Positions 1-60,767 of a stretch of 64,000 nt of DNA are shown here, piece by piece. The notes beneath the pieces were generated by a model, which was not told the origin of the DNA, made no database searches, and saw nothing but the letters and a program-made list of their open reading frames with translations. The position numbers were made by a program, and so were the translations under genes. This DNA is from Longimicrobiales bacterium (GTDB lineage: Bacteria > Gemmatimonadota > Gemmatimonadetes > Longimicrobiales > Gaopeijiaceae), in NCBI GenBank assembly GCA_965219445.1, contig CBDCNQ010000005.1:1-64000 (forward strand). Reading direction: 5' to 3'. Position 1 is the first letter of the stretch. The number at the start of each line of letters is the position of its first letter.

Positions 1-103
1 CCTGGCGTTCATGGAGGGCTTCGCCGAGGCCGGTGTGGACCCTGTTTCCTCTCGGAGCGACCGGCTCCGGGATTCATCCCCGAGAGAACGGAGAGGCAGA
101 GAG

Positions 104-331
104 ATGACGAGAACCATGGTGCAGGAAATGGAGGTGCCGATCCGCATCGTGCGGCTCCCGGCCGTGCAAGCTCGCACGGGGCTCGGGCGGAGCACGATCT
201 ACGTGCGGCTGGCCGAGGGTTCCTTCCCCAGACCCGTCCAGCTAGGCGCGCGCGCGGTCGGCTGGATCGAGGAGGAGGTGGACGAGTGGATCCGCAAGCA
301 GATCGCGTTGAGCCGCGGCGAGGCCGAGTGA
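104..331 (+). CDS. alpA: AlpA-family transcriptional regulator / excisionase-like HTH
   Basis: IVRLPAVQARTGLGRSTIY...GSFPRPVQLGARAVGWIEEEVDEWI matches the AlpA pattern; ATG at 104 after a purine-rich tract. Confidence 0.9.
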   Translation: MTRTMVQEMEVPIRIVRLPAVQARTGLGRSTIYVRLAEGSFPRPVQLGARAVGWIEEEVDEWIRKQIALSRGEAE

Positions 332-367
332 TCGGCGCATCCCAGCGAGAGACCAAGGAAGCAGACG

Positions 368-655
368 ATGCAACCTTTGTTAAGGACGGTACGAGCGGCG
401 GCCTGGGCCACGCTGTGGTTGCTGTTCCCCGGGGTGCTGTGGGCTCAGGGGACGAGCCCGTGGGTGGAGGCGGTGAACGAGCTGCAGGCGCAGTTCACGG
501 GTCCGATCGCGAGGGGGCTCTCGCTCATCGCGATCGTCGTGGGCGGGCTGATGTTCGCGTTCGGCGAGGGCGGTAGCAAGCGGACGCTGGCCGGGATCAT
601 CTTCGGTCTCGGGATGGCGATGGGCGCGGCGAACTTCCTGGCCTGGCTGTTCTGA
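368..655 (+). CDS. virB2: VirB2/TrbC-family conjugative pilin
   Basis: Signal peptide, SPW motif, GPIARGLSLIAIVVGGLMFAFGEG and two hydrophobic helices; first gene of the T4SS cluster. Confidence 0.85.
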   Translation: MQPLLRTVRAAAWATLWLLFPGVLWAQGTSPWVEAVNELQAQFTGPIARGLSLIAIVVGGLMFAFGEGGSKRTLAGIIFGLGMAMGAANFLAWLF

Positions 656-956
656 TGAGGGGTCTGAGGCGCTGGGTCGGCTATGCGGCGCTGAACCGTC
701 CGCTGACGATCCTGGGTGTGGAGCGTAGGGGGTTCCTGCTCGTCGCCACACTCGGGCTCGCGATGTGGAACGCGACGGCTTCGCTCGTGACGGGCGGCGT
801 GGTGTTCGCTGTGGGCTACGGTGCGGGCTGGCTCGCCGGCCGCAAAGACCCGGACATGCTTGGCGTGCTCCGCGCCGGGACGCGTTTCCCGTCGCGTTTC
901 GACCGGGCAAGTGGGCCGAAGAGCCGTGGCATCTCGTGATCCGGAGCGGGCGATGA
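655..956 (+). CDS. virB3: VirB3/TrbD-family protein (apparent 1-nt frameshift near 903)
   Basis: ALNRPLTILGVER motif, two TM segments and KDP motif; C-terminus PGKWAEEPWHLVIRSGR lies in another frame ending at 956 and overlaps the virB4 start. Confidence 0.8.
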
Positions 957-3393: not shown

Positions 3394-3399
3394 TACGCC

Positions 3400-4266
3400 A
3401 TGCGATCCCTATTGCAACCGATAGCTCTCCTGACGCTTCTCTTGGCTGCCTTCCCTGTCGCGGCTACCGCCCAGCAGGAGGACGACCAAGCGTTCCTCCG
3501 AGTACCGGTCCCCGAGGAGGGCGAGGACCGGATCCACCGGCTCCGCACCCAAGTCCGTCACACGACCGTCATCGTGCTCCCCGCCGGGGAGAACATCCTG
3601 GATTTCGTGGTCGGCGACTCGGAGTACTGGCACCTGGCGGGCGCCGCGAACGTCGCGTTCCTGAAGCCTCTCGCTTCGGACGCGGCGACGAACATCGCGC
3701 TCGTCTGCGAGTCCGGGCGCATCTACTCGTTCCTGGTGGCCGAGCACAGCGACGGGCCGCCCCATCTGGTCGTCCGGGTCGAGTCCGGCGCGGAGAAGAC
3801 GGGACTGTCCGGCGGCGGCAGCGGCCGTCCCGCGTTCGTCGCGCGGAGCGAGGTCGCGGCCTATCAGCAGATGGCCGCCGAGGCGGCCGAGGCGGCTCGC
3901 AGCGCCCGGGAGGCGGCCGAGGCCGGCATCCTGGAAGCCCGGACTCAGGCCGAAACGGAGATCGAGGAGTTCCGTGCGCGCTATCCGGAGCGTCTCGCGT
4001 TCGAGTACCGGCTCGACGGGGACGCGGCCGACCGGCCGTTCCTGGTCGAGGCGATGTGGCACGACGGGCAGTTCACCTACCTCCGCTCCCACGCCCAGGA
4101 GTCGCCGGCCCTCTATGAGCTCCGGGACGGCGAGCCTGCGCTCGTCGCCTACGACCTCTCAGAGGACGGCCTCTACATCGCCCGCCACGTGCTGGGCGAC
4201 GGGTGGCTGCAGATCGGTGACAAGCGGGCCGCTTGGCGGTTCACGCCCAGGGACGGGCTCCGATGA
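3400..4266 (+). CDS. virB9: VirB9/TrbG outer-membrane core complex protein
   Basis: Signal peptide; TTVIVLPAGENI, FLKP, TNIALVCESGRIYSF, MWHDGQFTY motifs of the CagX/TrbG family. Confidence 0.85.
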   Translation: MRSLLQPIALLTLLLAAFPVAATAQQEDDQAFLRVPVPEEGEDRIHRLRTQVRHTTVIVLPAGENILDFVVGDSEYWHLAGAANVAFLKPLASDAATNIALVCESGRIYSFLVAEHSDGPPHLVVRVESGAEKTGLSGGGSGRPAFVARSEVAAYQQMAAEAAEAARSAREAAEAGILEARTQAETEIEEFRARYPERLAFEYRLDGDAADRPFLVEAMWHDGQFTYLRSHAQESPALYELRDGEPALVAYDLSEDGLYIARHVLGDGWLQIGDKRAAWRFTPRDGLR

Positions 4267-5546
4267 GCCGCTGGAAGCAGTGGGTCCGGCCCCCGGAAGG
4301 CGCGCTGCCGGGCGGCATCGTGACGAAGGCCGGCGTGGTGTTGATCGCCGTGCTCGTCGGTGGACTCCTCTTCTCGTGGGCGATGACGGGTCCCCAGGAA
4401 GCCGACACTCTCGTAGCCCTGCCCGAGGCGCAGGCGGTCGACGACGGCATGGGGAGGTCGCTCCAGGGCCGCATTCGGCAAGAGGCCGAGCGGCAGACTC
4501 TGGAGGCCGCCGCCCGGGCGCGCGCCGAGCTCGAGCGCCGGCAGGCTGCGGCCGCCGGGGAGATGGCTCGGCTCCAGACCGAGTCGGAGACGCCGAACAC
4601 CGCAGCCTTGATCCCAGGCGTGAGCGCGGCCGAGTCGGAGCTTAGGGAGGCGCTTCGGCTGGAGGAGCTGGAGCGAAGAACCCGCTCGCTCCGTGCCCTT
4701 CCCGTGTCTCAGTCGTACCGGGACCCGAATGCAGCTGCGGAGTCGTCCCAGGGCGATGGCGCAGGCACAGATGGCGCGGCCGACGCGGATGTGGCGCTCC
4801 TCGAGAACGCGGTCCAAGCGGCTCTCGCCTCCTTCGAGCAGTCGCTCGGGGCGCTCGAGGGCGAGCTGGCGGCGGAGCAGCTTCTCCTCGGGTCCCCTGG
4901 CATCGCCGCTGCGATGGCGCCCGCGTCCGGGCCGCAGGCCTCCCTCCGAGCGCACGGTACGGCTGAGCCGGTCTCTAGCGTCGCGTCCGCCGACCCGCCG
5001 GGTTGGGAGCGGATCCATGAGGGCTCGTTCCTCGAAGGGGTGCTTCTCACTCAGCTCACGGGCGATTTCCCCGGACCGGTGCTCGCGACCGTCGCGGTGC
5101 CGTTCTATTCGGCCGACCGCCAGCGGGTCCTGATCCCGCGCGGCTCACGCGTCGTCGGAACAGCCCGGGCCGTCCAGGACCCGGACCAGAGCCGGCTCGC
5201 CGTCGCGTTCCACCGGTTGCTCCTGCCCGACGGCAGCTGGATCGACCTCGAGTTCACGGGCCTGAACCAGGCGGGCGAAGGCGCGCTTCGGGACCAGGTC
5301 GACCGCCACTACTTCAGCACGTTCGCGGCCGCCGGAGCTGTCGGTGTCGTAAGCGGACTCGCCCTGGCCGGCGGTTCGCCGTTCGGCCTCAGGGCGGGCG
5401 TCGGCCAGGGACTCGGCCAGAGCGCGACCTCGGTTCTCGACCGGTTCCTGAACCGGCTACCCACGATCACGATCCGCGCGGGCCATCGCCTGCGCATCTG
5501 GTTCACCTCCGATGTCCTGGTCCCCAGGCCCCGGACACGGCAATGA
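4263..5546 (+). CDS. virB10: VirB10/TrbI
   Basis: N-terminal TM and coiled coil; IHEGSFLEGVLLT, VLIPRGSRVVG, GEGALRDQVDRHY, PTITIRAGHRLRIW. Confidence 0.9.
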   Translation: MSRWKQWVRPPEGALPGGIVTKAGVVLIAVLVGGLLFSWAMTGPQEADTLVALPEAQAVDDGMGRSLQGRIRQEAERQTLEAAARARAELERRQAAAAGEMARLQTESETPNTAALIPGVSAAESELREALRLEELERRTRSLRALPVSQSYRDPNAAAESSQGDGAGTDGAADADVALLENAVQAALASFEQSLGALEGELAAEQLLLGSPGIAAAMAPASGPQASLRAHGTAEPVSSVASADPPGWERIHEGSFLEGVLLTQLTGDFPGPVLATVAVPFYSADRQRVLIPRGSRVVGTARAVQDPDQSRLAVAFHRLLLPDGSWIDLEFTGLNQAGEGALRDQVDRHYFSTFAAAGAVGVVSGLALAGGSPFGLRAGVGQGLGQSATSVLDRFLNRLPTITIRAGHRLRIWFTSDVLVPRPRTRQ

Positions 5547-5563
5547 AACGAAAGGAGACTCTC

Positions 5564-6472
5564 ATGCAGATCCGAACCCTTACCACCGTCCTCCTGGTCT
5601 CGGTCCTGATGCTCGCGAGCGCAAGTCCGGCCAACGCCCTTTTCGACATCGGCGGCGTGATCCAGCGCGCCCAGATGATCGTGAACCAAGCGACCCAGAT
5701 CGCGAACCAGATCCGCCAGATGCGGACCATGACCCGCCAGCTCACCGAGCTCGAGGAGCAGCTCGACTACATGAAGGACGTCGCGCGGGGCGAAGTCGAC
5801 GCGCTGATCGAACCGTTCGCCGAGCTGGCGGCCGGGTCCATCGGCCTCGTCGGCGACGGCCTCGGCTGGGGCTCCGAGTTCACCGGAGCAGCCGGAGAGC
5901 TGGTCGACGCTGTCCGTGACATGGGGAGCGGCGACTCGTTCACCGATGTCTGGCGGAGCGCCCAAGGTGTGGCCGACCAGGTGAGCGAGGCGGACATCCT
6001 CGAGCTGTTCCGTAACCGCCCGGCCGAGGCGTCGTCCCGCGCGGTGGAGGACTACCGCCAGGCCAAGGAGGCCGCCGACCGCCAGCGCGTGCTCGACTAC
6101 GCGATGATGGACGCCGCGGCCTCGCTCGCCTCGACCGTCGAGAGCGCGCAGGGCTCGTTCGACGAGCTCACCGCGAACGGCAATCTGTCCAACACGGCAC
6201 TCCAGCAGGCGCAGGTCGCGGCCGCGCTGACGCAGGGCCGGATCAACGCCGCCGTGGCGCAGGTGCTCGCCTATCAAGCGGTCGAGCAGGCGAACCGGAT
6301 GCAGCAGGCCGAGATCGACCGCCTCGAGCGCCTCGCCGAGTGGAGGGACGCACGCCTCCGTACGAACGCGATGGCCGATGCGATGCGGGCGGCCGCGTTC
6401 CAGAACCGCGACCGGCTCCGGGAAGGGCTCCTCTTCAAGATCCCGTCGTTCTACATGGGCGGCCAGGCATAG
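5564..6472 (+). CDS. VirB5/TrbJ-like secreted coiled-coil protein
   Basis: Signal peptide, QIANQIRQMRTM coiled coil, position between virB10 and virB6. Confidence 0.65.
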   Translation: MQIRTLTTVLLVSVLMLASASPANALFDIGGVIQRAQMIVNQATQIANQIRQMRTMTRQLTELEEQLDYMKDVARGEVDALIEPFAELAAGSIGLVGDGLGWGSEFTGAAGELVDAVRDMGSGDSFTDVWRSAQGVADQVSEADILELFRNRPAEASSRAVEDYRQAKEAADRQRVLDYAMMDAAASLASTVESAQGSFDELTANGNLSNTALQQAQVAAALTQGRINAAVAQVLAYQAVEQANRMQQAEIDRLERLAEWRDARLRTNAMADAMRAAAFQNRDRLREGLLFKIPSFYMGGQA

Positions 6473-6490
6473 GCCCCGGGAGCGACTGTC

Positions 6491-7501
6491 ATGCAACTTC
6501 CTCCCCCCCAGTCGATCGATCCGAACGTCCCGGCCCAGATCCCGGCGGATCAGCTCCAGGACTTCAAGGGGTTCCTGGACATCGTGCTCGACACCGTGGT
6601 CGGCGGCGCCGCGCCCGACGTGCTGACGCTCGGCCACCAGCTGTGGGGCGGTCTCGCGGCGATCGTCGTCGCATGGAGCGGCCTCAAGATCGCGTTCAGC
6701 GGAACCTTCGAGCCCTGGTCCCTCGTGCGGGTCGTGCTCGCGGTCACGATCCCCCGGACGCTCCTCCATTACTACAGCGTCCCGATCCCGGGCGTGGGCT
6801 TCACGTTTCCGGCCATGGTGGCGGCTGGGGGGATCTGGCTCCAGAACCTGTTCATCTCCGATGTCGTGTCCGTCGGCTACACGGAGATGACCGCGCTGGT
6901 GCAGGCGTTCGCCGCACGGCTCGGCGCGGCATGGTCGGGCGGGAGCCTGATGACCGTCGTGACCGAGGGCGTGAGCGTGTTCTTCTCGTCCCTCGTCGCG
7001 CTGATGATGGGCGTGCCACTCGTGCTCGGCCTCGTCGCGCTCTTCTGCCTGACCTACGCGCAGGTGATCTGGGCGCAGGTGGCGCTCGCGATCGTGATCC
7101 TCTTGGGCCCGGTGTTCATCCCCTGGCTGCTGTTCGAGCCGCTCGCGTTCCTGTTCTGGGGATGGTTCCGCACGCTCATGGTCTACACGCTCTACGGCGT
7201 CGTGGCCGGAGCGATCCTCCGTGTGTTCATGGGCGTGGGCATGGGCTACGTCACGACCTATACCGGCGCCTTGATGGGCACCGGCTCCTCCGACCCGGCC
7301 GAGCTCGGGCTCTGGGTCGTCGTCCTCCTCCCGCTCGTCGTCTCCGGCCTGATGGCCGGCATGAAGGTGGGCGAGCTCGCCGCGATGCTCGTCTCAGGGT
7401 CCGGGTCCGTCGGGTCGGGCATGATGGCGCTCGTGGTGCGCGGCGGCGGGCGCCTCAGCGCTGCCGCGAACCCGGCCCGCCCCCCAGTCCCCGGAGGCTG
7501 A
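6491..7501 (+). CDS. virB6: VirB6/TrbL polytopic membrane protein
   Basis: Multiple TM helices; LLGPVFIPWLLFEPLAFLFWGW motif. Confidence 0.85.
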   Translation: MQLPPPQSIDPNVPAQIPADQLQDFKGFLDIVLDTVVGGAAPDVLTLGHQLWGGLAAIVVAWSGLKIAFSGTFEPWSLVRVVLAVTIPRTLLHYYSVPIPGVGFTFPAMVAAGGIWLQNLFISDVVSVGYTEMTALVQAFAARLGAAWSGGSLMTVVTEGVSVFFSSLVALMMGVPLVLGLVALFCLTYAQVIWAQVALAIVILLGPVFIPWLLFEPLAFLFWGWFRTLMVYTLYGVVAGAILRVFMGVGMGYVTTYTGALMGTGSSDPAELGLWVVVLLPLVVSGLMAGMKVGELAAMLVSGSGSVGSGMMALVVRGGGRLSAAANPARPPVPGG

Positions 7502-7512
7502 AGGAGACGTCC

Positions 7513-8181
7513 ATGAACCGAGAACACGATGCCGGCCGCGAATACGCGGAAATCTGGGGCGAGACCGTCGAGGCGAACCGAAAGCTCCGGACGCTGGCGA
7601 TGATCCTCGCCGCCGCGTGCCTCGCGCTCGCCGTGCTGCTCCTCCGCATCGCGACCGTCGAGCCGCCCCGCCCGATCGTGGTGCGGGTCGACGAGGTCGG
7701 CCGCGCCGAGGCCGTGGCCTACGAGGCCGCAACGGCGCAGGCGGATCCGCTCGATCCCACGACCAAGTACTTTCTGAACCGGTTCATCTCCGACTTTTAT
7801 TCGCGGCGACGGGCGACGGTCGAGGAGCACTGGACCCGGAGCCTCCGCTTCCTCTCGACCGAGCTGGCGAACGCCGCGTTCACGAGGGACGGCGCCGAGG
7901 TCGCCGCCATGGCGGCCGGCACCTCCGACACCGAGCGCCAGGTCGAGCAAGTCGTGCTCCGCATCCACCCCGCACCGGAGGCTCCGCACGGCGCGACCGC
8001 CGACTTCGATCTCGTGCACCTGAGGCAGGGGCAGGAGACCCTGAGGGAGCGGTGGTCGCTCACGCTCCGGTTCACGTTTCTCACCGTCATCCCCTCCGAG
8101 CTCGTCGTCTACAACCCGATGGGCATCCTGATCACCTACCTTCAGGCCGACCGGGCCCTGGTCACGGAGCCGCCCAGGTGA
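7513..8181 (+). CDS. virB8: VirB8/TrbF
   Basis: AAGGAG RBS, single TM, PIVVRVDEVG and NPMGILITY motifs. Confidence 0.85.
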   Translation: MNREHDAGREYAEIWGETVEANRKLRTLAMILAAACLALAVLLLRIATVEPPRPIVVRVDEVGRAEAVAYEAATAQADPLDPTTKYFLNRFISDFYSRRRATVEEHWTRSLRFLSTELANAAFTRDGAEVAAMAAGTSDTERQVEQVVLRIHPAPEAPHGATADFDLVHLRQGQETLRERWSLTLRFTFLTVIPSELVVYNPMGILITYLQADRALVTEPPR

Positions 8182-9113
8182 TCGCGCATCTGCGGGGACG
8201 GGAAGCGGCGCTCGAGCCGTTCGGTTGGACGGGACGCCAGGCCGAGTGGATCGCGCTGGCCTGTCTCCACAGCGGCGTGTTCACCCGCGCCCAGCTCTCC
8301 GCCTATCTACGGATCGATCGCTGGCAGGCTCTTCGGTTCGTCCGGGCCATGTCGGAGCGAAGGCTGGCAGCCGACGAGACACTGGAAGGCCGGAAAGTCT
8401 GCCGGATCTGCGGGCGCGGGATCTACCGCGCGCTCGGCGCCGAGGACATCCGCCACCGCCGGGCTGCTTCCGATGAAGTGCTCCTGCGGCGCCTGCTCTC
8501 GCTCGACTACGTGCTCGAGCACACCGGCTTGTCGTGGCTGCCCACCGAGATGGAGAAGGTCGGCGCGTTCGAGGCGCTCGGCATCGAGCGCCGGCTCCTG
8601 CCCTCGCGGCTCTACCGCGGAGCCGCCGGCAACACGCGGCGTTACTTCCCAGTCAAGCTGCCGGTCGCGCTCGAAGCCGAGCGCGCCGTGTTCGTCTACG
8701 TCGATCCCGGACACGATACCACGACGGCGCTCCGCTCGTGGGGCGAAGCGCACCTGGGCCTCTGGCAAGCGCTGCGGGAGCGCGGCCGATCCATCGAGGT
8801 CGTCGCCGTCGTCCGCACCCGGAAGGAAATGGACCGAGCCGGGACGATCCTCGAGAACTGGACCAACACATCTACAGCATCCGGCCCCTCCGCCGCTCCG
8901 GAACCCGACAGTGCGGCTCGCCGCGAGATCGCCCGAATCGAGCAGGCCATCCGCGCCAAGGATGAGCGGGTGCTCAAAGAGTATGGCGACCTGCAGGCCT
9001 GCCTCAAGCGGATCGTTGAGCTGAACGACGTCCACCGATCCTCGACTCCCGGAACGTTGATCCACGGCTTCGCGACATGGCGCTCGAGACGGCTCCCTGG
9101 AGGTGGATTTTGA
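8178..9113 (+). CDS. Hypothetical protein with N-terminal winged-helix-like region, possible replication or transfer initiator
   Basis: GTG overlaps the virB8 stop; GWTGRQAEWIALACLHSGVFTRAQL resembles a wHTH start; homologous remnants at 14212-14630 and 54964-55190. Confidence 0.55.
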   Translation: MIAHLRGREAALEPFGWTGRQAEWIALACLHSGVFTRAQLSAYLRIDRWQALRFVRAMSERRLAADETLEGRKVCRICGRGIYRALGAEDIRHRRAASDEVLLRRLLSLDYVLEHTGLSWLPTEMEKVGAFEALGIERRLLPSRLYRGAAGNTRRYFPVKLPVALEAERAVFVYVDPGHDTTTALRSWGEAHLGLWQALRERGRSIEVVAVVRTRKEMDRAGTILENWTNTSTASGPSAAPEPDSAARREIARIEQAIRAKDERVLKEYGDLQACLKRIVELNDVHRSSTPGTLIHGFATWRSRRLPGGGF

Positions 9114-9118
9114 ACGCG

Positions 9119-9385
9119 GATCGGCGAGGGTCGGTGCTGATCGGCGAGTGCACAACAGACAACGGGGTGCATGTGCACCGAAACGCCATTTTCATGTGCG
9201 CGCCAGCGCTTCCTTATGTGGCTGCCTGTCTTACAGTTGCGGCACGGCCGCCGGAGCTGCGACGCCGCTCCGGAGCTTTCGGCCGAAGAAGGGAGCGACC
9301 CCCCCTTTCGGGATGCCTCGATCGGCATCGGGGAGGGTGCGCATGTGCACGCCCATGCCACCCTCCCACGGGGGGTCGCTCCCAG
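9119..9385 (+). repeat. Structured non-coding element, copy 1 of 3
   Basis: Near-identical to 13945-14210 (reverse) and 39838-40070; nested inverted repeats, e.g. GGGAGCGACCCCCC 9291-9304 pairs with 9370-9383. Confidence 0.85.
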
Positions 9386-9417
9386 CCATGGATCCCTACG
9401 GGAAGGTTGTCAGAGCG

Positions 9418-11457
9418 ATGCTGAGGCCGGCGACGCTCGTCCTCATGGGCCTCGCCGCGGCGGCCGCCATCGCCCACGCCTTCTGGGCGCCCTTTCCCGC
9501 CAGCGGCGGCAACCCCGTGCTGGACTTGATCGCCTACCACGATCCGGGCTTCCACACGGTGATCCGCGTCTGGTACTACGCGGCGCCCGCCGTCGCCGTG
9601 GTGCTCTTCGGCAGCCTCGGCCTCTCGGTCTGGAGAGTCTGGCTGCAGCCCAGGGCGGGAGGCGGCAGCAAGGGCAAGCTGCCTCCGTGGCCCGTGTCGC
9701 CGAACGACGCGGCACCCTCGCTCGTGATCGGCGAGCTGCACCACCCGACCGTTCCGTGCGAGAGCGAGCGGCCCTCCTGGCTCGTGATCCCAGAGACGGG
9801 CCTCTACACCGGCGTCCTCATCGTCGGCGCCGTGGGCTCCGGCAAGACCTCGGCCTGCATGCACCCGTTCGCCGAGCAGCTCCTCTCCTGGCAGGCTGAC
9901 CGGCCCGGCCGGCGGGCCAGCGCCCTGGTGCTCGAGGTCAAGGGCGACTTCTGCCACGCAGTGCGAGGGATCCTCGATGAGGCCGGGCGAGGGGACGACT
10001 ATCTGGAGATCGGACTGGACGGCGCCTGGCAGTGGAACCCGCTCGACGATCCGCTGCTCGACACTTACTCGCTCGCCTACAGCGTCTCATCCCTGATCAA
10101 CCAGCTCTTCGGCAAGAGCCGCGAACCGTTCTGGCAGCAAGCCTATACGAACCTCGTGCGCTGGATCATCGAACTGCACCGGCTCCTGCCGGGGGGCTGG
10201 GTCACGCTGCAGGATGTCTACCGCTGCACGATCGACGCAGAACTGTTCGCCGGGAAGATCGGCGCGGCCCAGGACCTGGTGGCTGAGGCGTGCCCGGCGC
10301 GCGTCGTCATCTCCCACGACGACATGATCGGCCATCCGGAAGCGCTGAATGACTGGGTCTGGATATATACCTCCGGTGAGGACACGGTGACGTGCCGGCT
10401 CGATCCCGGGTTGAGCGATCGGCTCGCCGAGCTCAGGATCCCGTTCGAGACCGAGGAGAGCGAGGGCGGAGCGGGCAGCGAGCTCAGGGAGCAGGTGGAG
10501 GCGATCGAGCGCTGGTACCTGAACGACTGGATGGCGCTCGACCCCAAGGTCCGCACCTCGATCGTCGAGGGCATCTCCGTCTTCCTCTCGCTCTTCGATC
10601 AGCCGCGAGTCGCGAGCATGTTCTGTCCGCCGCCTCCGGACCCGGACGAATCCACACATATATATAGTACGGCTCCGGACGAGGACGGCGCGGCCGTCCG
10701 GCCCATGCCGGGCCTACGCCGCCGGCTGCCGCCGCTCGCCGAGCTGATCGAAGAGGGCCGCGTCCTCGCCCTCAACATGCCCGCGGGCGCGAACCCGGCG
10801 CTCGGACGAGCCATCGGCGTGCTGCTCAAGAACGCCTGGATGCAGGCGCTCCTGCGGCGGCCCGCAGAGGCCGCCCGCCGGCCCGGACGCTACTTCCGGC
10901 CCGCAGTGTTCATCTGCGACGAGTATCAGGCGTTCGCCACCGTGGGCCAGGACGACCCCGCTGGCGACGAGAAGGCGTTCGCGCTGACGCGGCAGTGCCG
11001 CTGCATCCCGATCGTAGCCACGCAGTCGATCTCCTCGCTCCGCTCCGTGCTGTCGGGCACGGAGGCCTGGCGCACGCTGGTCCAGACGCTCCGCACCCGG
11101 ATCTTCCTGTCCTTGAGCGACGAGTCCTCGGCCAGGATCGCGTCCGAGATGTGCGGGAGCGTCATGAAGACGCAGCCCTCCTACACGTTCACCGAGACCA
11201 CGGGCAGGCCCGAGTTCTCGCTCTTGTCCGGGCGAGCCGGAGGCGGACGGGGCACGATCGGCGCGAGCAAGTCGTTCCGGCAGGCACGGGAGCCGGTGTT
11301 CACGCCTCGGGACTTCACGCTGCTCGCCAACTACCAGGCGATCTGCCTGCCCTACGACGGCACGAAGTCCCTTCCGGCCCGGCGCGTCTACCTGAAGCCC
11401 CACTACTTGTCGAGGGACGTGGGCTACTGGCGGCTCCGCGAGGAGGGGCGGATATGA
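9418..11457 (+). CDS. Type IV coupling protein (VirD4/TraD-like)
   Basis: Two N-terminal TMs; GAVGSGKT, LVLEVKGD, FWQQA, FICDEYQ and IVATQSISSL motifs. Confidence 0.85.
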   Translation: MLRPATLVLMGLAAAAAIAHAFWAPFPASGGNPVLDLIAYHDPGFHTVIRVWYYAAPAVAVVLFGSLGLSVWRVWLQPRAGGGSKGKLPPWPVSPNDAAPSLVIGELHHPTVPCESERPSWLVIPETGLYTGVLIVGAVGSGKTSACMHPFAEQLLSWQADRPGRRASALVLEVKGDFCHAVRGILDEAGRGDDYLEIGLDGAWQWNPLDDPLLDTYSLAYSVSSLINQLFGKSREPFWQQAYTNLVRWIIELHRLLPGGWVTLQDVYRCTIDAELFAGKIGAAQDLVAEACPARVVISHDDMIGHPEALNDWVWIYTSGEDTVTCRLDPGLSDRLAELRIPFETEESEGGAGSELREQVEAIERWYLNDWMALDPKVRTSIVEGISVFLSLFDQPRVASMFCPPPPDPDESTHIYSTAPDEDGAAVRPMPGLRRRLPPLAELIEEGRVLALNMPAGANPALGRAIGVLLKNAWMQALLRRPAEAARRPGRYFRPAVFICDEYQAFATVGQDDPAGDEKAFALTRQCRCIPIVATQSISSLRSVLSGTEAWRTLVQTLRTRIFLSLSDESSARIASEMCGSVMKTQPSYTFTETTGRPEFSLLSGRAGGGRGTIGASKSFRQAREPVFTPRDFTLLANYQAICLPYDGTKSLPARRVYLKPHYLSRDVGYWRLREEGRI

Positions 11458-12174
11458 AGCGCGCCAGCGGGATCGCGCACCTGCGACCGTTCCTGCCGGG
11501 CCTCGAGGCCGTGCTCGAGGATCCGGAGGTCTCCGAGCTGATGATCAACGGCCCCGGCAACGTCTGGGTCGAGCGCGGCGGGGAGCTCGAGCCCATCGAA
11601 GCACCGGCTCTCACCGCCGCGGCACTCTACCGGGCGGCGATCCACATCGCGCGCCCGCTCGGCCTCGATCCGGCCACACGGCCCATCCTCGACGCGCGGC
11701 TCGACGACGGCTCCCGCGTGGCCATCTGCACGCCGCCGGCCAGCCCCCACGTGGCGATGACGATCCGCCGGTTCGCAGGCCGCGCGTTCTCGGCTGACGA
11801 CCTCGTCGGCCAGGGGGCCCTGCCCGAGAGCGTGTTCCGCGCGGCCGAGGGCGTGCTCCGCTCCCGGCGTAACATCCTAGTTTCGGGCGGCACCGGCTCG
11901 GGCAAGACCACGCTGCTGAACGCGCTGATCGAGCTACTCCCAGAGGAGGAGCGGATCGTCGCCATCGAGGACACGCTCGAGCTCAGGATCGACCGGACCA
12001 ACTGCCTTCGCTTCGAGGCCGGAGCGGCGGGCTCCGAGGCGCCCGTGTCGATCCGTGACCTGGTGCGGCACGCGCTCCGCCACCGGCCCGACCACATCGT
12101 CGTCGGCGAGGTCAGGGGCGGCGAAGCCGCCGATCTCCTGCAGGCGCTGAACACGGGCCACGGCGGATCGCTCA
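11454..12174 (+). pseudogene. virB11: VirB11/TrbB ATPase, 5' part (interrupted; 3' part at 19021-19283)
   Basis: ELMING, GGTGSGKTT, IEDTLEL, LRHRPDHIVVGEVRG, LNTGHGGSL; joins in frame to TTVHANNA at 19021, giving 327 aa. Confidence 0.9.
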
Positions 12175-12335
12175 TCTCCAGTACATAGATTCCAGTACAA
12201 TCCATATGTGTCCAGTAAGATTGTCTAACTAGCTCTATGACAGTGGTTTATGTAGGACCCGTCCGCTTGCAGTGTCGCTGTATGTCCACTACATTCCCGT
12301 ATATGACATACGATACTTTATACGGGGACTAGGAC

Positions 12336-13538
12336 ATGGATTTGCCCAAACACCGAGGGAGACGCCCGCACAACGCACTCAGCGCGGCCTTCGTGCGCAG
12401 TGCCAAGCCCGGATACTACTGTGATGGGAACGGCCTCTATCTGCGCGTGGACCGATCCGGCGCGCGCCGATGGGAGCAGCGTCTGCGGATACAGGGTCGA
12501 AACCGCACGATGGGGCTCGGGGGCTACCAGTTGGTATCGCTGGCCGAGGCGCGCGAGAAGGCATTCATGAACCGTAAGATTGCGCGCTCGGGCGGTGATC
12601 CGCGTACCGAGCGGCACAAGGTCCGGGACATCCCCACGTTCGCCGAGGCGGCCGCCCGTGTTCTGGAACAGCTGCGGCCGGGCTGGCGCACTGCCAAGCA
12701 TGCGAAGGACTGGGTCACCAGCCTGCGCGTCTATGCGTTCCCACAGCTGGGCAATCGACCGGTCGGCGAGATAACGACAGCCGACGTTCTGGCGGTTCTG
12801 ACACCGATCTGGCACGACAAGCAGGTGACTGCCCGGCGGGTGCGCCAGCGCATCGGGGCGGTGATGAAGTGGGCGGTGGCGATGGGGCTTCGGCCGGACA
12901 ACCCCACTGGCGATGTGCTCGGTCAAGCGCTCGGCCGACAGCGCGTCGTAGTCCGGCACATGCGCGCGTTGCCTCACGCGGAGGTCGCGGGCGCGATCAA
13001 GGCGGCCCGGACTTCGGCGTCGACCCTCACGACAAGGCTCGCCTTCGAGTTCATGGTGCTGACGGCGTGCCGCTCCAGTGAGGTTCGCTTGGCGAGTTGG
13101 GATGACATCAATCTCGAGACGGCCGAGTGGACCATCCCCGGTGAGCGCATGAAGGCCCAGCGCCCCCACAGGGTGCCGCTATCCTGGCGGGCCATGGAGA
13201 TCCTGGGCGAGGCGCGGACGCTCGGCGGCGGCGGTCTGGTTTTCCCGTCGCCGGAGGGCCGCGTGTTTTCCGACACCAACCTCCCCAGGCTGCTTCGAGG
13301 ACTGGGCATCGCGGCCGTGCCGCACGGCTTCCGGTCCAGCTTCAGGGACTGGGCGGCCGAATGCACGGACACCCCCCATGCGGTCATGGAGGCGGCGTTG
13401 GCGCACGTGGTCCGCAACAAGGCGGAAGCGGCGTACGCTCGCTCGGATCTGTTCGAGCGCAGGCGCGTCCTGATGGCCGATTGGGCGGCCTATCTGGCCG
13501 CCGAGCGTCGAGACCCGGAGGCCGGACCGGCTCGCTGA
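12336..13538 (+). CDS. P4-family tyrosine integrase with arm-binding domain
   Basis: DGNGLYL arm domain; TACRSSE, MKAQRPHRVPL, PHGFRSSFRDW, LAH, AAYARSD catalytic motifs. Confidence 0.95.
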   Translation: MDLPKHRGRRPHNALSAAFVRSAKPGYYCDGNGLYLRVDRSGARRWEQRLRIQGRNRTMGLGGYQLVSLAEAREKAFMNRKIARSGGDPRTERHKVRDIPTFAEAAARVLEQLRPGWRTAKHAKDWVTSLRVYAFPQLGNRPVGEITTADVLAVLTPIWHDKQVTARRVRQRIGAVMKWAVAMGLRPDNPTGDVLGQALGRQRVVVRHMRALPHAEVAGAIKAARTSASTLTTRLAFEFMVLTACRSSEVRLASWDDINLETAEWTIPGERMKAQRPHRVPLSWRAMEILGEARTLGGGGLVFPSPEGRVFSDTNLPRLLRGLGIAAVPHGFRSSFRDWAAECTDTPHAVMEAALAHVVRNKAEAAYARSDLFERRRVLMADWAAYLAAERRDPEAGPAR

Positions 13539-14177
13539 TCCGCCGCGCTCGCAGTGTCGGCGGACGAGTCCGTCAGGCGCTGAAGAGCGGGGGCGCGAAG
13601 GCTGGCTCACGACCCGTTAGCAGTCATGAGCCAGCCTACCCTTTGGGGCCACGCTTCGCGGGTCCCCGGCAGGGGCTGGCGAGGGTGGCTCCGCCCCCTT
13701 CGATTCCCTGGACGCCCGCGCTCCGGCAGGCCATGGCGCGCACGCGGCCGGCAGGTCGCGCGCATCGGCGGCAACCTCAACCACGTCGGGGCAGTTTCGG
13801 GCTTGGTCGAGCGCCGACGCCGACCTCACTGCGACGACTTGCCGAGCCACCTAGCTGGTGAAAAGCCGCGACCGGCGGCCGGATTCGTTGATACGCCGCG
13901 CTCGTAGCGGCGCTTGATGGCCTTCCCGCTAGGGATTGCTGGAGGGGAGCGACCCCCGGCGGAGGGTGGCATGGGTGTGCACATGCCAACCCTCCGCGAT
14001 GCCGATCGAGGCATCGAATCCGGGGGGTCGCTCCCTTCTTCGGCCGAAAGCTCCGGAGCGGCGTCGCCGCTCCGGCGGCCGTGCCGCAACTGTAAGACAG
14101 GCAGCCACATAAGGAAGCGCTGGCGCGCACATGGAAATGGCGTTTCGGTGCACATGCACCCCGTTGTCTGATGTGCA
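13508..14177 (-). repeat. ~670-bp module (integrase tail, oriT-like motif, mobC remnant, structured element), inverted copy of 39838-40507
   Basis: Direct comparison shows only a handful of substitutions; both integrases end RDPEAGPAR*. Confidence 0.9.
13600..13790 (+). other. Candidate ColE1/MOB_P-type oriT followed by a mobC remnant
   Basis: Inverted repeat GGCTGGCTCA (13600-13609) / TGAGCCAGCC (13627-13636) containing a CTGGCT nic-like core; QVARIGGNLNH MobC-like motif near 13752. Confidence 0.6.
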
Positions 14178-14211
14178 CTCGCCGATCAGCACCGACGCTC
14201 GCCGATCCGCG

Positions 14212-14630
14212 TTCAAAATCCGCCTCCAGGGAGCCGTCTCGAGCGCCATGTCGCGAAGCCGTGGATCATCGTTCCGGGACTCGAGGATCGGTGGAGGTCC
14301 TTCAGCTCGACGATCCGCTTGAGGCAGGCCTGCAGGTCGCCATACTCTTTGAGCACCCGCTCATCCTAGGCGCGGATGGCCTGCTCGATTCGGACGATCT
14401 CGCGGCCGATTTCGTGGTCGAATTCGGAGGGGTGGGGATCTCGCGCCCAGTTGGCGAGCACCGTCTCCGCCCGGCCCCGCTCGTCCGTTGTCCGGACGAG
14501 GACCACGACTTCGATCCCGCGGCCGCGATCCCAAAGCGCCTCCCAGAGTTCGCGGTGCGCGGCACCCCAGGAGCGGAGCACCGTCGCGGTCTCGTGGCCC
14601 GGATCGACGTAGACGAACACGGCAGCGGAG
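14212..14630 (-). pseudogene. 3' remnant of a homolog of the 8178-9113 gene
   Basis: AVFVYVDPGH...EQAIRA*DERVLKEYGDLQACLKRIVEL...RRLPGGGF with an in-frame TAG; 5' half absent. Confidence 0.85.
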
Positions 14631-14773
14631 AGGATCGGAACCATCATCGCGGCCGCCATGACGGGTCCAGACAAACGACGCCCGGAATTCACTCAACCGA
14701 CGCCGTAGCCTGCTGACAGCGAAGGGTTGCCGCGGTTCGTCCATACGTGTATCATGACGAATGATGCAGCATA

Positions 14774-14980
14774 ATGCGGCAAAGTGCAGTGGCAGCTAAA
14801 GAACGCCTTACGGTTAACCTCGAAGCTCCTGAATATCAGGAGCTTCGAAGGCTGGCAAAGCAGCACGAGGTCTCGATGGCGTGGCTTGGCCGTCGGGCCA
14901 TCACATGGTTCCTAGAACAGAGCGACAGTCAACGCGAGCTTCCGTTCCCCCCAAATCCCAGAGGTCGCGTGGAAACGTAG
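14774..14980 (+). CDS. Ribbon-helix-helix (CopG-like) regulator of the R-M cluster
   Basis: RLTVNL..EYQELRRLA...VSMAWLGRRAI; abuts the MTase start. Confidence 0.7.
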   Translation: MRQSAVAAKERLTVNLEAPEYQELRRLAKQHEVSMAWLGRRAITWFLEQSDSQRELPFPPNPRGRVET

Positions 14981-16135
14981 ATGGCCCCTATAGTCGGAAG
15001 TTTCTATGAATTTTTCGCTGGCGCTGGCATGGCGCGTGCTGGCCTTGGGGACCGCTGGCACTGCCTGTTCGCCAACGATTTCGACCGGAAGAAAGCCGCG
15101 ACCTACACCCTCAACTGGGGTGCAGACAATTTGCTGTGCGGAGACGTGCGAGACGTCACCACGCGTGACCTAATCGGCGTTGCCGACCTAGCTTGGGCAT
15201 CCTTCCCATGTCAGGACCTGTCGCTTGCTGGCAGCGGTGCCGGGCTGAAGGGGGAACGCTCCGGTACGTTCTGGCCATTCTGGAACCTAATGACAGCGCT
15301 TGCCGATGAATCGCGCGCGCCTGCCGTGATTGTCTTGGAAAATGTCTGCGGAACGCTTTCTTCTCACGGCGGTAAGGATTTCAAGGCCATCTGCAATGCG
15401 TTTCGTGGCGGCGGCTACAGGTTCGGTGCCCTGGTCATTGATGCCGTTCATTTCGTCCCTCATTCACGGCCCCGTCTCCTGATTATTGCAGTGAGGGGTG
15501 ATGTTCCCATTCCCGACACGCTTTGCGGGCAAGAGCCAGCGCGAAAGTTTCACTCGCGCTCGCTCAGGAACTCCTTCGGCAAGCTACCCGCTGATTTGAA
15601 GGAAAGCTGGATTTGGTGGTGCCTCCCAGCACCGCCATCGCGCAACACTGGCTTCTCCGACCTCATCGAGGAAGATCCGGGCGACGTTCTTTGGCATACG
15701 CCCGCCGAGACGCGGAAGCTCATAGACATGATGAGCGACGTGAACCTAGAAAAGGTTCGCTCTGCGAAGCAGGAAGGGCGGCGAAGAATCGGCACGGTGT
15801 ACAAGCGCACGCGGCGCGACGGAACCGGCCGCAAGGTCCAACGCGCCGAAGTGCGCTTCGACGATATCGCCGGATGCCTGCGTACTCCGGCCGGTGGCTC
15901 AAGCCGACAGCTTGTGCTCGTTGTTGAGGGCCGCAAGGTGCGGTCGCGCCTCATATCGAGCCGCGAGACCGCGCGACTTATGGGACTTCCAGACGACTAC
16001 ATCCTGCCCGACAACTACAACGAAGCCTATCATCTGACAGGCGACGGGGTTGTTGTGCCGGTGGTCCGTTTCTTGGCGGACACGCTCATCGAGCCCGTGG
16101 TCTTGCACGCAATCAAAGCCCACAGAGCCGCATGA
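14981..16135 (+). CDS. C5-cytosine DNA methyltransferase
   Basis: FFAGAG (motif I), SFPCQDLS (IV), LENV (VI), PHSRPR (VIII), RETARLMGLPD (IX), GDGV (X). Confidence 0.95.
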   Translation: MAPIVGSFYEFFAGAGMARAGLGDRWHCLFANDFDRKKAATYTLNWGADNLLCGDVRDVTTRDLIGVADLAWASFPCQDLSLAGSGAGLKGERSGTFWPFWNLMTALADESRAPAVIVLENVCGTLSSHGGKDFKAICNAFRGGGYRFGALVIDAVHFVPHSRPRLLIIAVRGDVPIPDTLCGQEPARKFHSRSLRNSFGKLPADLKESWIWWCLPAPPSRNTGFSDLIEEDPGDVLWHTPAETRKLIDMMSDVNLEKVRSAKQEGRRRIGTVYKRTRRDGTGRKVQRAEVRFDDIAGCLRTPAGGSSRQLVLVVEGRKVRSRLISSRETARLMGLPDDYILPDNYNEAYHLTGDGVVVPVVRFLADTLIEPVVLHAIKAHRAA

Positions 16136-16989
16136 GCATCATCCCATGCCAGCGGAACAACAGCCTCCGAGAGCAAATCGAGGCATTCGCTGAAACCCTG
16201 AAGACCGAGGCTCATACGCTTGGCGATCATGGCCTCAGCGAGTCGGAATTCTACAGCAGCGGTGTGTTCCGGGGCGCGATCGAGCGCGTTCGCGGACAGT
16301 TTTCTGCCACGATGCGCGACAAGCGAGAATTCGTCCAGCATGTTCTCAACTACATGCAGGATGAGGGGTTCATCAATGACTGGGAATCCGCTGGCGACGC
16401 CAATCGCCACGACTACGCCGTCGGTCTTGAATCGGGTCGAACAGCCATCATCGAGTTGAAGGGCTGCCTTGACGGCAACAACACCACCATCTTCGAACGA
16501 CCACCGCACGCCGACGAGTTCATCATCTGGAGCATTTGCACGAGCCCGGCTGCCGACCCGCGCCACAACGCCTGGTCCGGAATCCATACGCGCCTGAGCG
16601 CTGAAATCGTCTCCCGCGAACAACGCGTCGACGGGATAGTCATCTGGGACATGGTTTGCGGCACCGTCTGGCGGCCTTGCCCCAAATTGCTGGCCGACGA
16701 TTCCCGCCTAACCATTGTTGGACCGTACTCGCTGCCCCCACCGTGCCTGTACATCCTGCCCTCCACGATTCCGAGTCCTCGCAACAACCCCAGCCCCCAG
16801 CCTCAACAGCTCGTCGATGTTGAGATAATGATGGTCTTCAACGACTGCTTCCTGTGTAGGCCAGAAGAAATCAACTACGTCAGTTTTGACGTCGCCCATC
16901 GTGAGGCTGACACAGTTCGGACGACGCGAGTTGTTCGTGATGGCGCTGTGCAGAAGGAATCAGCTCCGACCGCAATCCGACGGTCATAG
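16132..16989 (+). CDS. Putative type II restriction endonuclease (PD-(D/E)xK-like)
   Basis: Lies between the MTase (ATGA overlap) and vsr; HDY...IIELKG motif. Confidence 0.6.
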   Translation: MSIIPCQRNNSLREQIEAFAETLKTEAHTLGDHGLSESEFYSSGVFRGAIERVRGQFSATMRDKREFVQHVLNYMQDEGFINDWESAGDANRHDYAVGLESGRTAIIELKGCLDGNNTTIFERPPHADEFIIWSICTSPAADPRHNAWSGIHTRLSAEIVSREQRVDGIVIWDMVCGTVWRPCPKLLADDSRLTIVGPYSLPPPCLYILPSTIPSPRNNPSPQPQQLVDVEIMMVFNDCFLCRPEEINYVSFDVAHREADTVRTTRVVRDGAVQKESAPTAIRRS

Positions 16990-16991
16990 CT

Positions 16992-17402
16992 ATGTCATCG
17001 GAGCAGCGCAGCCGGACCATGCGCGCAGTCAAAGATCGCGACACGAAGCCCGAGATGGCAGTGCGGCGACTCCTGCATCGTATGGGCTATCGGTACAGAC
17101 TGCACCAGAAGGACTTGCCGGGTAAGCCGGACATTGTGTTCCGCCCGCGTCGGAAGGTCATCTTCGTTCATGGATGTTTCTGGCACGGGCACTCTTGCAA
17201 GCGCGGGAACCGCCTTCCGAGAACCAACGCCGAGTACTGGCAGACGAAAATAGCGCGCAACGTCGAACGCCACTTGGACCAACTCGGCGAACTGACTGGG
17301 GCTGGTTGGACAGGACTAACGCTGTGGGAGTGCGAGCTTACCGACAAGGATACTGTCACACGGCGTTTAGGCACTTTCCTCGACGAGACCGCTAGTCTGT
17401 AG
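16992..17402 (+). CDS. vsr: Very short patch repair endonuclease
   Basis: RSRTMRAVK..DTKPE, LPGKPDIV, FVHGCFWHGH, WECEL. Confidence 0.95.
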   Translation: MSSEQRSRTMRAVKDRDTKPEMAVRRLLHRMGYRYRLHQKDLPGKPDIVFRPRRKVIFVHGCFWHGHSCKRGNRLPRTNAEYWQTKIARNVERHLDQLGELTGAGWTGLTLWECELTDKDTVTRRLGTFLDETASL

Positions 17403-17582
17403 TTCGTTGGGGGACGTCGGCTGTTTGTACAAAGACGGTAATCAGCTAACACTCGGACCAAGCCGGTGCTACGACGAGATTGCCAACATTATCGCAATCA
17501 GTGATTCGATGGTGTACCGGACCAACCCGCGCTTTGCCGAAGGCGATCTGGAGATAGCCCTGAACGAACGGCGCGTGTCGCA

Positions 17583-18197
17583 ATGACTCGACCATACGCC
17601 CAGGAATTGTATAAGCGATCACTATTAGATGATGCTTGTCCGGTGTGTGGCTTGTTCTACGTGAAGGAATTGCCCGAAGAGCGAAGACATCATCGTTCAT
17701 TCCATGCCCGCATGCTGTTAGTGTTCGAACCGAAACCAAACAAGGCGCTGGCGAAACGTCATGCTAAATTCGGGCGCTACGTCCCATTAACCTCCCAATC
17801 ACCAACATGGATGAATCGTCGGTTACACTGGATCGCGAGAGTGCTGCATCGGGAGAACAGCTACGACTTTATAATGTGGCCAGAATCTGGGGGTGATGGC
17901 GAGGGATTCATTCTCACGGACAGTGATGGCCGAGCTCTTGGCGGCTGTGCGGTGCAATGGTGTGAGTGGTCTGATGCGCCAGCGTGTTGGGTACTGCAAT
18001 GGATCTGGATTGCCCCTCCATATCGCCGACAAGGGCTGCTTAGGGATACGTGGTCGATGCTGACAACAAAGTATGATGGGATTATACCGGATCGGCCGTA
18101 TTCACCGGAGGCGGCACGGTTTTTTCTGTCGCTCAGCAATTTGCCGGAACATGTTGAGTTGTGGTTGAGGTTCGCTCTACAAGAGGCTCCCGCTTGA
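17583..18197 (+). CDS. C2H2 zinc finger plus GNAT acetyltransferase, Eco1/ESCO-like architecture
   Basis: CPVCGLFY....PEE...H..FH finger; WIWIAPPYRRQG acetyl-CoA motif A. Confidence 0.7.
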   Translation: MTRPYAQELYKRSLLDDACPVCGLFYVKELPEERRHHRSFHARMLLVFEPKPNKALAKRHAKFGRYVPLTSQSPTWMNRRLHWIARVLHRENSYDFIMWPESGGDGEGFILTDSDGRALGGCAVQWCEWSDAPACWVLQWIWIAPPYRRQGLLRDTWSMLTTKYDGIIPDRPYSPEAARFFLSLSNLPEHVELWLRFALQEAPA

Positions 18198-18565
18198 GCC
18201 ATCGCGTCTAGCTCCCGCACGCGCCGCCGGAAGGATAGCCGGAGCCCCCCGTCCGGGTCCACGTGGACCAGCTGGACGCCGGAAGGCTCGGGGACGTAGC
18301 CCGCCGCGCGAGCCTAGCCGCGAGAGGCGCGATACAGGCCGCCAGGGAGCCGGGCCGCCCGCGCGGGGAGCCGGCTTCGCGTCCGGGAGGGCTTTGGGGG
18401 GGCTGGAGGATTCGCAGGCCTCCCAAGCAACGGGAGGCATCCACCGGCCATCCTTCCACCCGCCGCCGTCCCTGCCGGATCGGGGCCGATCCCCGAAGGC
18501 GGCGCACGCCAAGTCCGGGAAGGAACAGCCCCCACGGCAGTATGCGATCACCGCCGCCCTCTACG

Positions 18566-18904
18566 TCATGCCGCCGTGTCCGGTCCGGGTGGGCCTGCCG
18601 CCTCCGCGCCTCCGCGCTTGATGCGCACCCGGTAGACGCGGTAGGCCGAGCCCGTCCGCGCCGATTGCCTCCACTCCACGAACCGGATGAGAAGCCAGTC
18701 GCCGGGCTCGGGGAGGGGGTCCAGGGCCTGCTTTAGGGTCACCTCCGTGGGGATCACGGCGAAGGATTGCCCGTCCGGGGTGAGGAGCGTGACCACCGGA
18801 TAGCTGCCGTGCGGGCCGCCGCGCTCCTCCCGCGCGACACCGAAGGTCGAACCCGTCACGGGGTCCGCGAACGTACCGTAGGGTCCCGTGTAATCGCACG
18901 CCAA
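18566..18904 (-). CDS. Small hypothetical protein, possible OB-fold ssDNA-binding protein
   Basis: Beta-rich pattern YPVVTL..DG..FAV...PGDWLLIRF...YRVYRV; fold call is inference. Confidence 0.45.
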   Translation of the reverse strand: MACDYTGPYGTFADPVTGSTFGVAREERGGPHGSYPVVTLLTPDGQSFAVIPTEVTLKQALDPLPEPGDWLLIRFVEWRQSARTGSAYRVYRVRIKRGGAEAAGPPGPDTAA

Positions 18905-19020
18905 TTATACGGGATCACATACGATATGAACGAGTCAGACCAAAACCTACGGCATCCATAACTAACCGTATGTCATATAGTTACGACGATGTACGCACAT
19001 CGCTGATAGCTGCTCGCTCA

Positions 19021-19283
19021 CCACCGTGCACGCCAACAACGCCCGCTCGGCGCTCTCGCGCCTGGCGAGCTGCGCCATGCAGGCCGGAGGGGCGCTTCCC
19101 TGGGAGGTCACCTGCCGAGGCGTGGTCGACGGGATCTCGCTCGTCGTCCACATGACGCGGCGAGGGGGCCGACGGTTCGTCGAGGAGGCGCTCCGTGTGA
19201 AGGGCTACGAGGCGGCCGCCAACCGCTGGCTCACCGAACCCGTCTGGAGGAAGGACGATGAAGAACAAACAGAAAAGGAGTGA
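19021..19283 (+). pseudogene. virB11: VirB11 ATPase, 3' part
   Basis: TTVHANNARSALSRL His-box continuation, in frame with 11454-12174. Confidence 0.9.
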
Positions 19284-19287
19284 GGCC

Positions 19288-19488
19288 ATGGAAAGCGACG
19301 AGAAGATCGTCCGCGTCGAGACGCTCGACGACTTCGACCGCGAGCTCGCGCGCGACGGCGGCGAGGCCCTCGAGGTACCAGCATCGCTGGCCGAAGAGTA
19401 CGGCCTCTTCTCCGAGGACGTGGGCACCGAGGACGAGATCCGAGACGCCTCGGAGGATCCGCACGGCCCCGAGGAGGAAGAGCTATGA
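19288..19488 (+). CDS. Small highly acidic hypothetical protein
   Basis: RBS-like GGAG/GAGG upstream; D/E-rich 66 aa; ATGA overlap with ardC. Confidence 0.6.
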   Translation: MESDEKIVRVETLDDFDRELARDGGEALEVPASLAEEYGLFSEDVGTEDEIRDASEDPHGPEEEEL

Positions 19489-38035: not shown

Positions 38036-38039
38036 CGGT

Positions 38040-60765: not shown

Positions 60766-60767
60766 CC

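Follow-up and report, generated by a model that had tools for sequence, protein, structure and literature searches.

A small integrative element with a P4-type tyrosine integrase is inserted site-specifically in virB11 of a conjugative element from a Longimicrobiales bacterium

The virB11 gene carried by an ICE (integrative and conjugative element) in a Longimicrobiales bacterium (assembly GCA_965219445.1, here G000) is interrupted by a small element of 6,846 bp, which we call the islet. The window, the 64-kb stretch of DNA that we analysed, starts with base 1 of G000 contig C5; it opens on the transfer operon of the host ICE, and virD4 is followed by virB11, ardC and further genes. The islet is a real, site-specific, ICE-embedded integrative element. 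Its own P4-type tyrosine integrase likely placed it in virB11, and its gene content suggests that it is probably an IME (integrative and mobilizable element) of a kind that would depend on an origin of transfer (oriT) and carry no relaxase of its own.

An exact 7-bp direct repeat, TCGCTCA, stands at 12168-12174 and again at 19014-19020 and extends no further on either side. In-silico deletion of 12175-19020 (6,846 bp) yields a stop-free virB11 open reading frame (ORF) of 327 aa that starts at ATG 11454 and reads ...TGHGGSL/TTVHAN... across the join. VirB11/TrbB models match both halves of the gene, and an uninterrupted paralog from the same genome also encodes 327 aa, with 90% identity across the C-terminal half. 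G000 holds eight uninterrupted virB11 copies, two of them with the exact empty site, which is present in one ICE that is 98.3% identical across 12 kb. An earlier note, made from the letters of the window, had described the shared TCGCTCA and the return of an in-frame 327-aa VirB11 on removal of 6,846 bp; the first proves to be exactly 7 bp and the second is borne out by the computed ORF and the empty paralog site. As it stands, the 5′ part of virB11 meets a stop after 244 aa, four codons into the element, so the gene is disrupted, as the note had implied, and the islet carries no replacement virB11 sequence. The break point falls between what we take to be the two histidines of the VirB11 His-box region. 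One His-box histidine of VirB11-type ATPases faces the nucleotide, according to an excerpt of PMC6153414. The closest relatives of this VirB11 come from genome assemblies of Longimicrobiales (including Candidatus Palauibacter) and Acidobacteriota. These relatives make a Gemmatimonadota host likely, and their names hint at a possible sponge habitat. The features at and around the junctions are these:

11..11457, forward strand: transfer operon of the host ICE, with alpA (11-331), virB2, B3, B4, B9, B10, B5, B6, B8, gene X and virD4 (domain models)
11454..12174, forward strand: virB11/trbB-like ATPase gene of the host ICE, 5′ part, 240 codons (PF00437, TIGR02788, TIGR02782)
12168..12174, forward strand: left 7-bp direct repeat, the overlap of the left attachment site, attL (repeat comparison)
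12175..12335, forward strand: AT-rich left end of the islet; conserved putative integrase arm-type sites lie at 12296-12326
12336..13538, forward strand: P4-type tyrosine integrase, 400 aa (Arm-DNA-bind_3, Phage_int_M, Phage_integrase)
18833..19013, forward strand: right end of the islet; conserved putative arm-type sites lie at 18906-18926 and 18967-18979 (motif conservation)
19014..19020, forward strand: right 7-bp direct repeat, the overlap of the right attachment site, attR (repeat comparison)
19021..19283, forward strand: virB11 3′ part (VirB11/TrbB models, paralog alignment)

The same base of virB11 is occupied in G000, G058 and G285, genomes of three genera, by elements of 6,846, 6,250 and 12,761 bp with unrelated cargo, which bears out the site-specific insertion proposed in the earlier note. 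The two ends of the islet moreover share motifs: TATACGGG at 12319 and 18906, with an inverted copy at 12296, and CATACGATA at 12307 and 18918. An inverted motif common to both ends (12300 versus 18967), reported before as 12 bp, measures 13 bp; the other shared end motifs are real as reported. Nine nine-mers are common to both ends, against a mean of 0.34 in shuffled sequence, with none of 2000 shuffles reaching nine, and the end motifs are kept across all integrase clades. These observations bear on the possibility that the structure is an assembly artefact or a chance 7-bp repeat. The window does lie at a contig edge in a repeat-rich genome, and its first 3.3 kb holds five probable 1-bp errors: deletions at 904, 1218, 1597, 1742 and 3307 that frameshift virB3/virB4, are lacking from the other aligned ICE copies and may be assembly error or decay. 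However, the end motifs exceed all 2000 shuffles, and identical junctions occur in two other genomes with different cargo; the artefact is refuted because independent genomes carry the same junctions, and we regard it as extremely improbable.

The register of strand exchange can be read from the family. In the virB11 element a G stands at positions −2 and −5 from the 7-bp overlap in all four half-sites. The earlier note had also seen an imperfect palindrome around the reconstructed empty site; it is present in the empty-site sequence, but it implies an 8-bp spacer whereas the family data favour a 7-bp overlap. We rejected this palindrome as the recombination register, and it may be incidental, because it is missing from the virB4 site described below and also from the core of the element itself.

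Of the 314 genomes of the bacterial family, 8 carry integrases that are 82% or more identical to that of the islet, with 20 matches in all, and the left end of the element is visible for 19 of these 20. Three left ends lie in virB11, nine in virB4 at ELINR (two of the nine look like one duplicated locus), one antisense in virB4, one antisense in an integrase gene and five elsewhere. The 14 right ends, from five relatives, divide into three in virB11, seven in virB4, one in an integrase gene and three elsewhere. The antisense virB4 site, at KTWRKKN, is represented by one complete 5.1-kb element (5,102 bp; L107), and the antisense site in a P4-type integrase gene by two single ends from different genomes, one left and one right. 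Within the clade of 95-96% identity, three of four integrases occupy the virB11 base used by the islet. The left end of the fourth is off target, and virB11 of that genome holds a right end of this type that lacks a partner. The expectation that close integrase homologs would also sit in virB11/trbB/cpaF at GHGGSL is not borne out as predicted: only those three of four in this clade do so, and the 82-86% relatives occupy two virB4 sites, an integrase gene or off-target sites; the wider leaning of the family towards conjugative-element genes is borne out by its virB11, virB4 and integrase-gene sites. Four off-target sites among the 82-86% relatives mostly retain the overlap. In the virB4 cases tested, removal of the element gives a continuous frame across the junction, one of them with another lesion nearby.

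The integrases fall into a virB11 clade (support 100/98) separate from a virB4 clade (100/99), and identity between the two clades declines from 96% in the arm domain and 91% in the core-binding domain to 74% in the catalytic domain. We infer that the arm sites stay fixed and the core drifts as the catalytic domain changes. The family also offers a natural retargeting series of at least four different 7-bp overlaps with common arm sites, which should be useful for learning how specificity changes in tyrosine integrases. Among genomes with the same type IV secretion system (T4SS), 2 of 48 had an integrase match at E 1e-160, one belonging to the virB4 clade and the other just 66-67% identical; an order-wide search with the left end matched 4 of 301 genomes, and 0 of the 144 from the two other families; and a metagenome scan for the integrase kept 80 loci that are at most 68% identical, none of which matches the element ends.

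The islet has its own integrase and flanking direct repeats, by which IMEs are recognised. The integrase matches PRK09692 below that model's cut-off, and its catalytic residues (R246, K273, H330, R333, H357, Y367) are presumably intact. The remaining features of the islet are these:

13629..13709, forward strand: candidate oriT for an MbeA-like relaxase (position, conservation)
13720..13790, forward strand: degenerate mobC remnant in two frames, with no relaxase after it (by-eye match to mobC of L204; unscored by tblastn)
13921..14623, reverse strand: inverted copy, 85% identical, of ICE segment 8685-9406 (DNA comparison)
14774..14980, forward strand: small ribbon-helix-helix protein (PF01402, E 0.003, under the curated cut-off)
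14981..16135, forward strand: C5 cytosine methyltransferase (domain models)
16132..16989, forward strand: type II restriction endonuclease (PADLOC REase_II, E 8e-145, full length)
16992..17402, forward strand: Vsr very-short-patch repair endonuclease (domain models)
17583..18197, forward strand: ESCO-type zinc finger and GNAT acetyltransferase-like protein (domain models)

The adjacent C5 methyltransferase, endonuclease and Vsr genes form a predicted type II restriction-modification (RM) system with Vsr, which the ribbon-helix-helix protein possibly regulates. ICE segment 8685-9406, of which the islet carries an inverted copy, consists of the 3′ part of gene X and the gap before virD4 and has many repeats in the genome. 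Scans of ORFs and domain models found neither VirB4 nor other T4SS genes in the element, and domain-model scans found neither a primase nor phage genes.

The module at 13629-13709 is a candidate oriT by virtue of its position and conservation. An oriT-like module of this kind lies upstream of eight of nine relaxase starts in G000, and in L204, a close relative from clade A, the order is integrase, oriT-like module, mobC and MbeA-like relaxase. Two core motifs of the module are found directly upstream of mobC in all five proteobacterial plasmids compared, which were the four top relaxase matches and the best DNA match. A blastn search of the candidate against plasmids gave no significant match (the best, at E 0.08, lies upstream of a mobC-relaxase pair), and no annotated oriT was matched by the module. 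It may resemble the ColE1 nick site. Four relaxase matches in G000, of 424-499 aa, are candidates for acting in trans.

These features suggest how such an element could work. The integrase would bind the conserved arm sites and exchange strands over the 7-bp overlap, and changes in its catalytic domain would have moved the family between target sites. The choice of targets, which lie within conserved-motif codons (VirB11 His-box region, VirB4, VirD4 Walker B), would reflect that this DNA varies least among the many ICE copies. Because the element lacks AlpA, its excision would call for a directionality factor in trans, possibly the AlpA of the ICE. An MbeA-like relaxase from elsewhere in the genome would then nick the circle at the candidate oriT, and the islet would be exported through an ICE T4SS. 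On this view, which we hold likely, the islet is a parasite on conjugative elements that borrows both relaxase and channel. It would need no restoration of its own virB11, because intact copies are present in the genome.

Excision was looked for by comparing assembled contigs from four public runs (four studies) with 11300-19500. Joints that skip 6,852-6,853 bp were considered as excision products and rejected, their other junction letters being those of other virB11 alleles. Contigs of the four runs cover the cargo, each listed piece differing from it in 0-7 places. Scans for promoters and terminators detected none at either end of the element and no terminator-like site in 12100-12400.

Several observations weigh against an oriT-dependent, ICE-exploiting IME. 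A relaxase and AlpA were not found in the islet by tblastn, and across ten complete elements of the family a relaxase occurs in only one and AlpA in three. The intact helper ICE copy has neither the oriT-like module nor the relaxase, so compatibility of the element with the helper T4SS is assumed. No circle junction was found among 15 of the 92 joints, although assembled contigs drop rare forms and for that reason the joints say nothing for or against excision. Occupancy is low: of the 78 related virB11 loci whose junction can be seen, 1 is occupied, as is one of nine copies in G000. Five of the 19 left ends and three of the 14 right ends lie outside mobile-element genes. The genomes surveyed are related and therefore not independent, and purging of insertions in host genes could inflate the apparent preference for ICE genes.

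A different account is that abundant, dispensable, multicopy ICE DNA is merely a safe landing site, and that the islet is an immobile remnant kept for its RM cargo and functionally unconnected with conjugation. RM pairs are addictive; the relaxase has been lost and mobC degraded; G000 is full of broken ICE copies; off-target insertions occur; and other clades are apparently located at an IS3-family gene and at integrase genes (labels by eye). However, the integrase is intact, as are the two ends; cargo that is nearly identical recurs in the runs of four studies; and the oriT-like module is kept in all ten complete elements while cargo turns over. We consider this account possible but not probable.

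A further alternative, the one put forward in the earlier note, gives the disruption itself a role: the ICE would be transfer-dead until induction, whereupon excision would restore virB11 and the islet would leave through the channel. Consistent with such a regulated switch, the reading frame returns on precise removal, both here and in relatives; the integrase points the same way as the transfer operon, with no terminator-like site before it; and alpA heads the ICE operon and is missing from the element; moreover, the same scheme has been shown for helper-embedded phage-inducible chromosomal islands (HE-PICIs; PMC10111431, excerpt) and proposed for streptococcal IMEs (PMC5357655, excerpt). 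Against it, the eight uninterrupted virB11 copies of G000 could complement in trans, this ICE copy is otherwise damaged (the virB3/virB4 deletions and a split integrase gene), and relatives also lie antisense and in genes dispensable for the channel (ardC, integrase genes). A regulated switch is in our judgement unlikely.

We also surveyed P4-type integrases more widely, covering the upstream side of each integrase. Of 87 P4-type integrases in five genomes of the bacterial family, 24 have their start no more than 260 bp from a junction that lies in an ICE backbone gene, and one has a tRNA gene within 1.4 kb upstream; ICE backbone makes up 3.1% of G000. The count of 24 leaves out all 30 rows from G193, of which 14 are head-to-head integrase pairs mislabelled by the rule, as well as matches starting past residue 45 and two hits at the C-terminus of integrase genes. 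Recurrent sites include two in virD4 (its Walker B region and its start), gene X and ardC (some labels by eye), and a fast tree places the site groups in clades. Counts for gene X in the protein survey are underestimates owing to a wrong-frame query; a DNA search finds five in G000. A bolder reading would see here a radiation of P4-type elements specialised on the genes of one ICE family, moving from one conserved motif to another as the catalytic domain changed and gating their helper in cis, with excision timed by the helper's AlpA or by operon read-through; its sites would comprise virB11, two in virB4, the virD4 Walker B region and start, virB8, ardC, a backbone gene of no known family and the ICE integrase. 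We hold this to be rather doubtful; if true, such a radiation of ICE-embedded satellites would be the conjugative counterpart of HE-PICIs.

The oriT-dependent IME that we favour can be set beside four kinds of known element, the cited sources being used here as excerpts. In HE-PICIs (Tommasini, Mageeney, Williams 2023), late genes of helper prophages are repeatedly targeted, excision was measured, and off-target events occur (PMC10111431). Like these, the islet has a tyrosine integrase of the P4/PICI region and inserts in a helper gene without a replacement sequence; in both, integrase subclades track site groups, helper genes are repeatedly preferred as sites evolve, some insertions are off target and many helpers are decayed. 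Unlike them, its helper is a conjugative element rather than a lambdoid prophage and the targets are T4SS ATPase and other ICE genes rather than late genes; and it lacks AlpA, primase and capsid genes and has a candidate oriT instead of a cos site.

Streptococcal and clostridial IMEs with serine integrases disrupt traG (VirD4), maff2 and snf2 of Tn5252-family ICEs (PMC5357655, PMC5704250), and a model in which excision restores transfer has already been proposed for the streptococcal ones (PMC5357655). A 2024 review mentions both HE-PICIs and gene-disrupting IMEs (PMC11389934). The islet's family resembles the IMEs of Tn5252-family ICEs in that conserved ICE genes, one of them essential for transfer, are disrupted site-specifically, with several sites per gene and decayed ICEs among the hosts. 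It differs in that those IMEs have serine integrases, come from Firmicutes and carry their own relaxase, whereas the islet's family disrupts virB11 and virB4 of a VirB/Trb-type system, likely in Gemmatimonadota. The tyrosine-integrase IMEs of the same two sources target oriT or gene ends without disruption, whereas the islet disrupts virB11.

Relaxase-less oriT islands (iOriTs) are common (bioRxiv 10.64898/2026.01.13.699239). With them the islet shares an integrase, att sites, a candidate oriT, defence cargo and the lack of relaxase and mating-pair genes; its candidate oriT is proposed from position and conservation. A term search of the iOriT text found no insertion within helper transfer genes. 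With P4-family (IntA/PRK09692-like) islands the islet has in common a three-domain integrase, arm-type sites, a short overlap and RM cargo. Such islands usually lie at tRNA genes or the ends of housekeeping genes (PMC5704250), whereas the target of the islet is neither a tRNA or tmRNA gene nor a gene end left intact, and virB11 is broken. The islet works like an HE-PICI or a traG-disrupting IME and is a member of neither group; it is best seen as a counterpart, among conjugative elements, of the phage satellites and as a version of the streptococcal traG IMEs that has a tyrosine integrase. In open-access literature, supplements aside, we found no report of tyrosine-integrase elements in virB11 or virB4, and TIGER/Islander tables may list such sites. 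With the islet, parasitism by helper-embedded elements would reach beyond prophages and Firmicute ICEs to VirB-type conjugation; the integrase is here a tyrosine integrase, and the targets are ATPase genes. As small elements with defined ends, the islet and its relatives make the proposal that excision restores conjugation (PMC5357655) testable. For annotation, split T4SS genes in such genomes are better read as reversible-looking insertions than as simple decay.

The host ICE holds other targets and insertions. Its virB4 contains an empty target of the sister clade at 1564-1570, and G000 as a whole has three empty virB4 sites together with two left and three right occupied junctions. A second nested element, of 5,670 bp at 33021-38690, is flanked by a 13-bp direct repeat (33008, 38678) and splits an ICE-type tyrosine integrase gene downstream of virB11 that, read over the junction, has 387 aa. 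The element contains a P4-type integrase 46% identical to that of the islet, a degenerate mobC-relaxase with an oriT module and, by eye, a TonB-receptor-like ORF; its left junction recurs in contig C3 of G000 and in L317. Two conserved backbone genes, 8184-9113 (gene X) and 20406-21293, have no match in Pfam or NCBIfam; no relaxase of the ICE itself was recognised, and one of these genes could encode it. Atlas neighbours of the 8184-9113 gene fall in Acidobacteriota-rich clusters.

Gene X and virD4 recur as sites in other copies. Five integrases of 52-54% identity adjoin the same base (nt 474) of gene X on contig C5 of G000, near 455156, 608200, 648779, 951398 and 1181070. A 3.7-kb element at G000:C5:583581-587273, with a 59%-identical integrase and a short direct repeat, lies antisense in the Walker B region of virD4, a region also occupied in G058, G103, G056 (both orientations) and G193. 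A clade of 61% identity (window 40477-41830, L262-L264, L274) apparently inserts at one fixed position, close to where an IS3-family transposase gene starts, judged by eye, and small contigs of G193 carry numerous P4-type integrase genes paired head to head (L285-L308).

Among the close relatives, cargo (L107, L114, L204, L205, L212) includes fibronectin-III, Ig-like/leucine-rich-repeat and Calx-beta proteins, a TonB receptor, a type I RM system and an ScpB fragment, and a tRNA-Met lies inside the virB4 element of G000. In some elements (L213 at G000:C5:246709-250593; L081/L223 in G058), a T4SS gene holds one end and the opposite end lies at an unrelated place, which suggests integrase-driven inversions or integration of a whole ICE via the islet att site. 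In G103 (contig C1; L277, L279), an integrase of 93-95% identity is split by a 1.3-kb insertion, and its 5′ end is missing. Elsewhere in the window, 57899-63818 holds a cluster of GrpE-like, Hsp70-like and AAA-ATPase-like genes of lower GC, by eye, and G000:C3:31920-34298 packs 17 tRNA genes into 2.4 kb.

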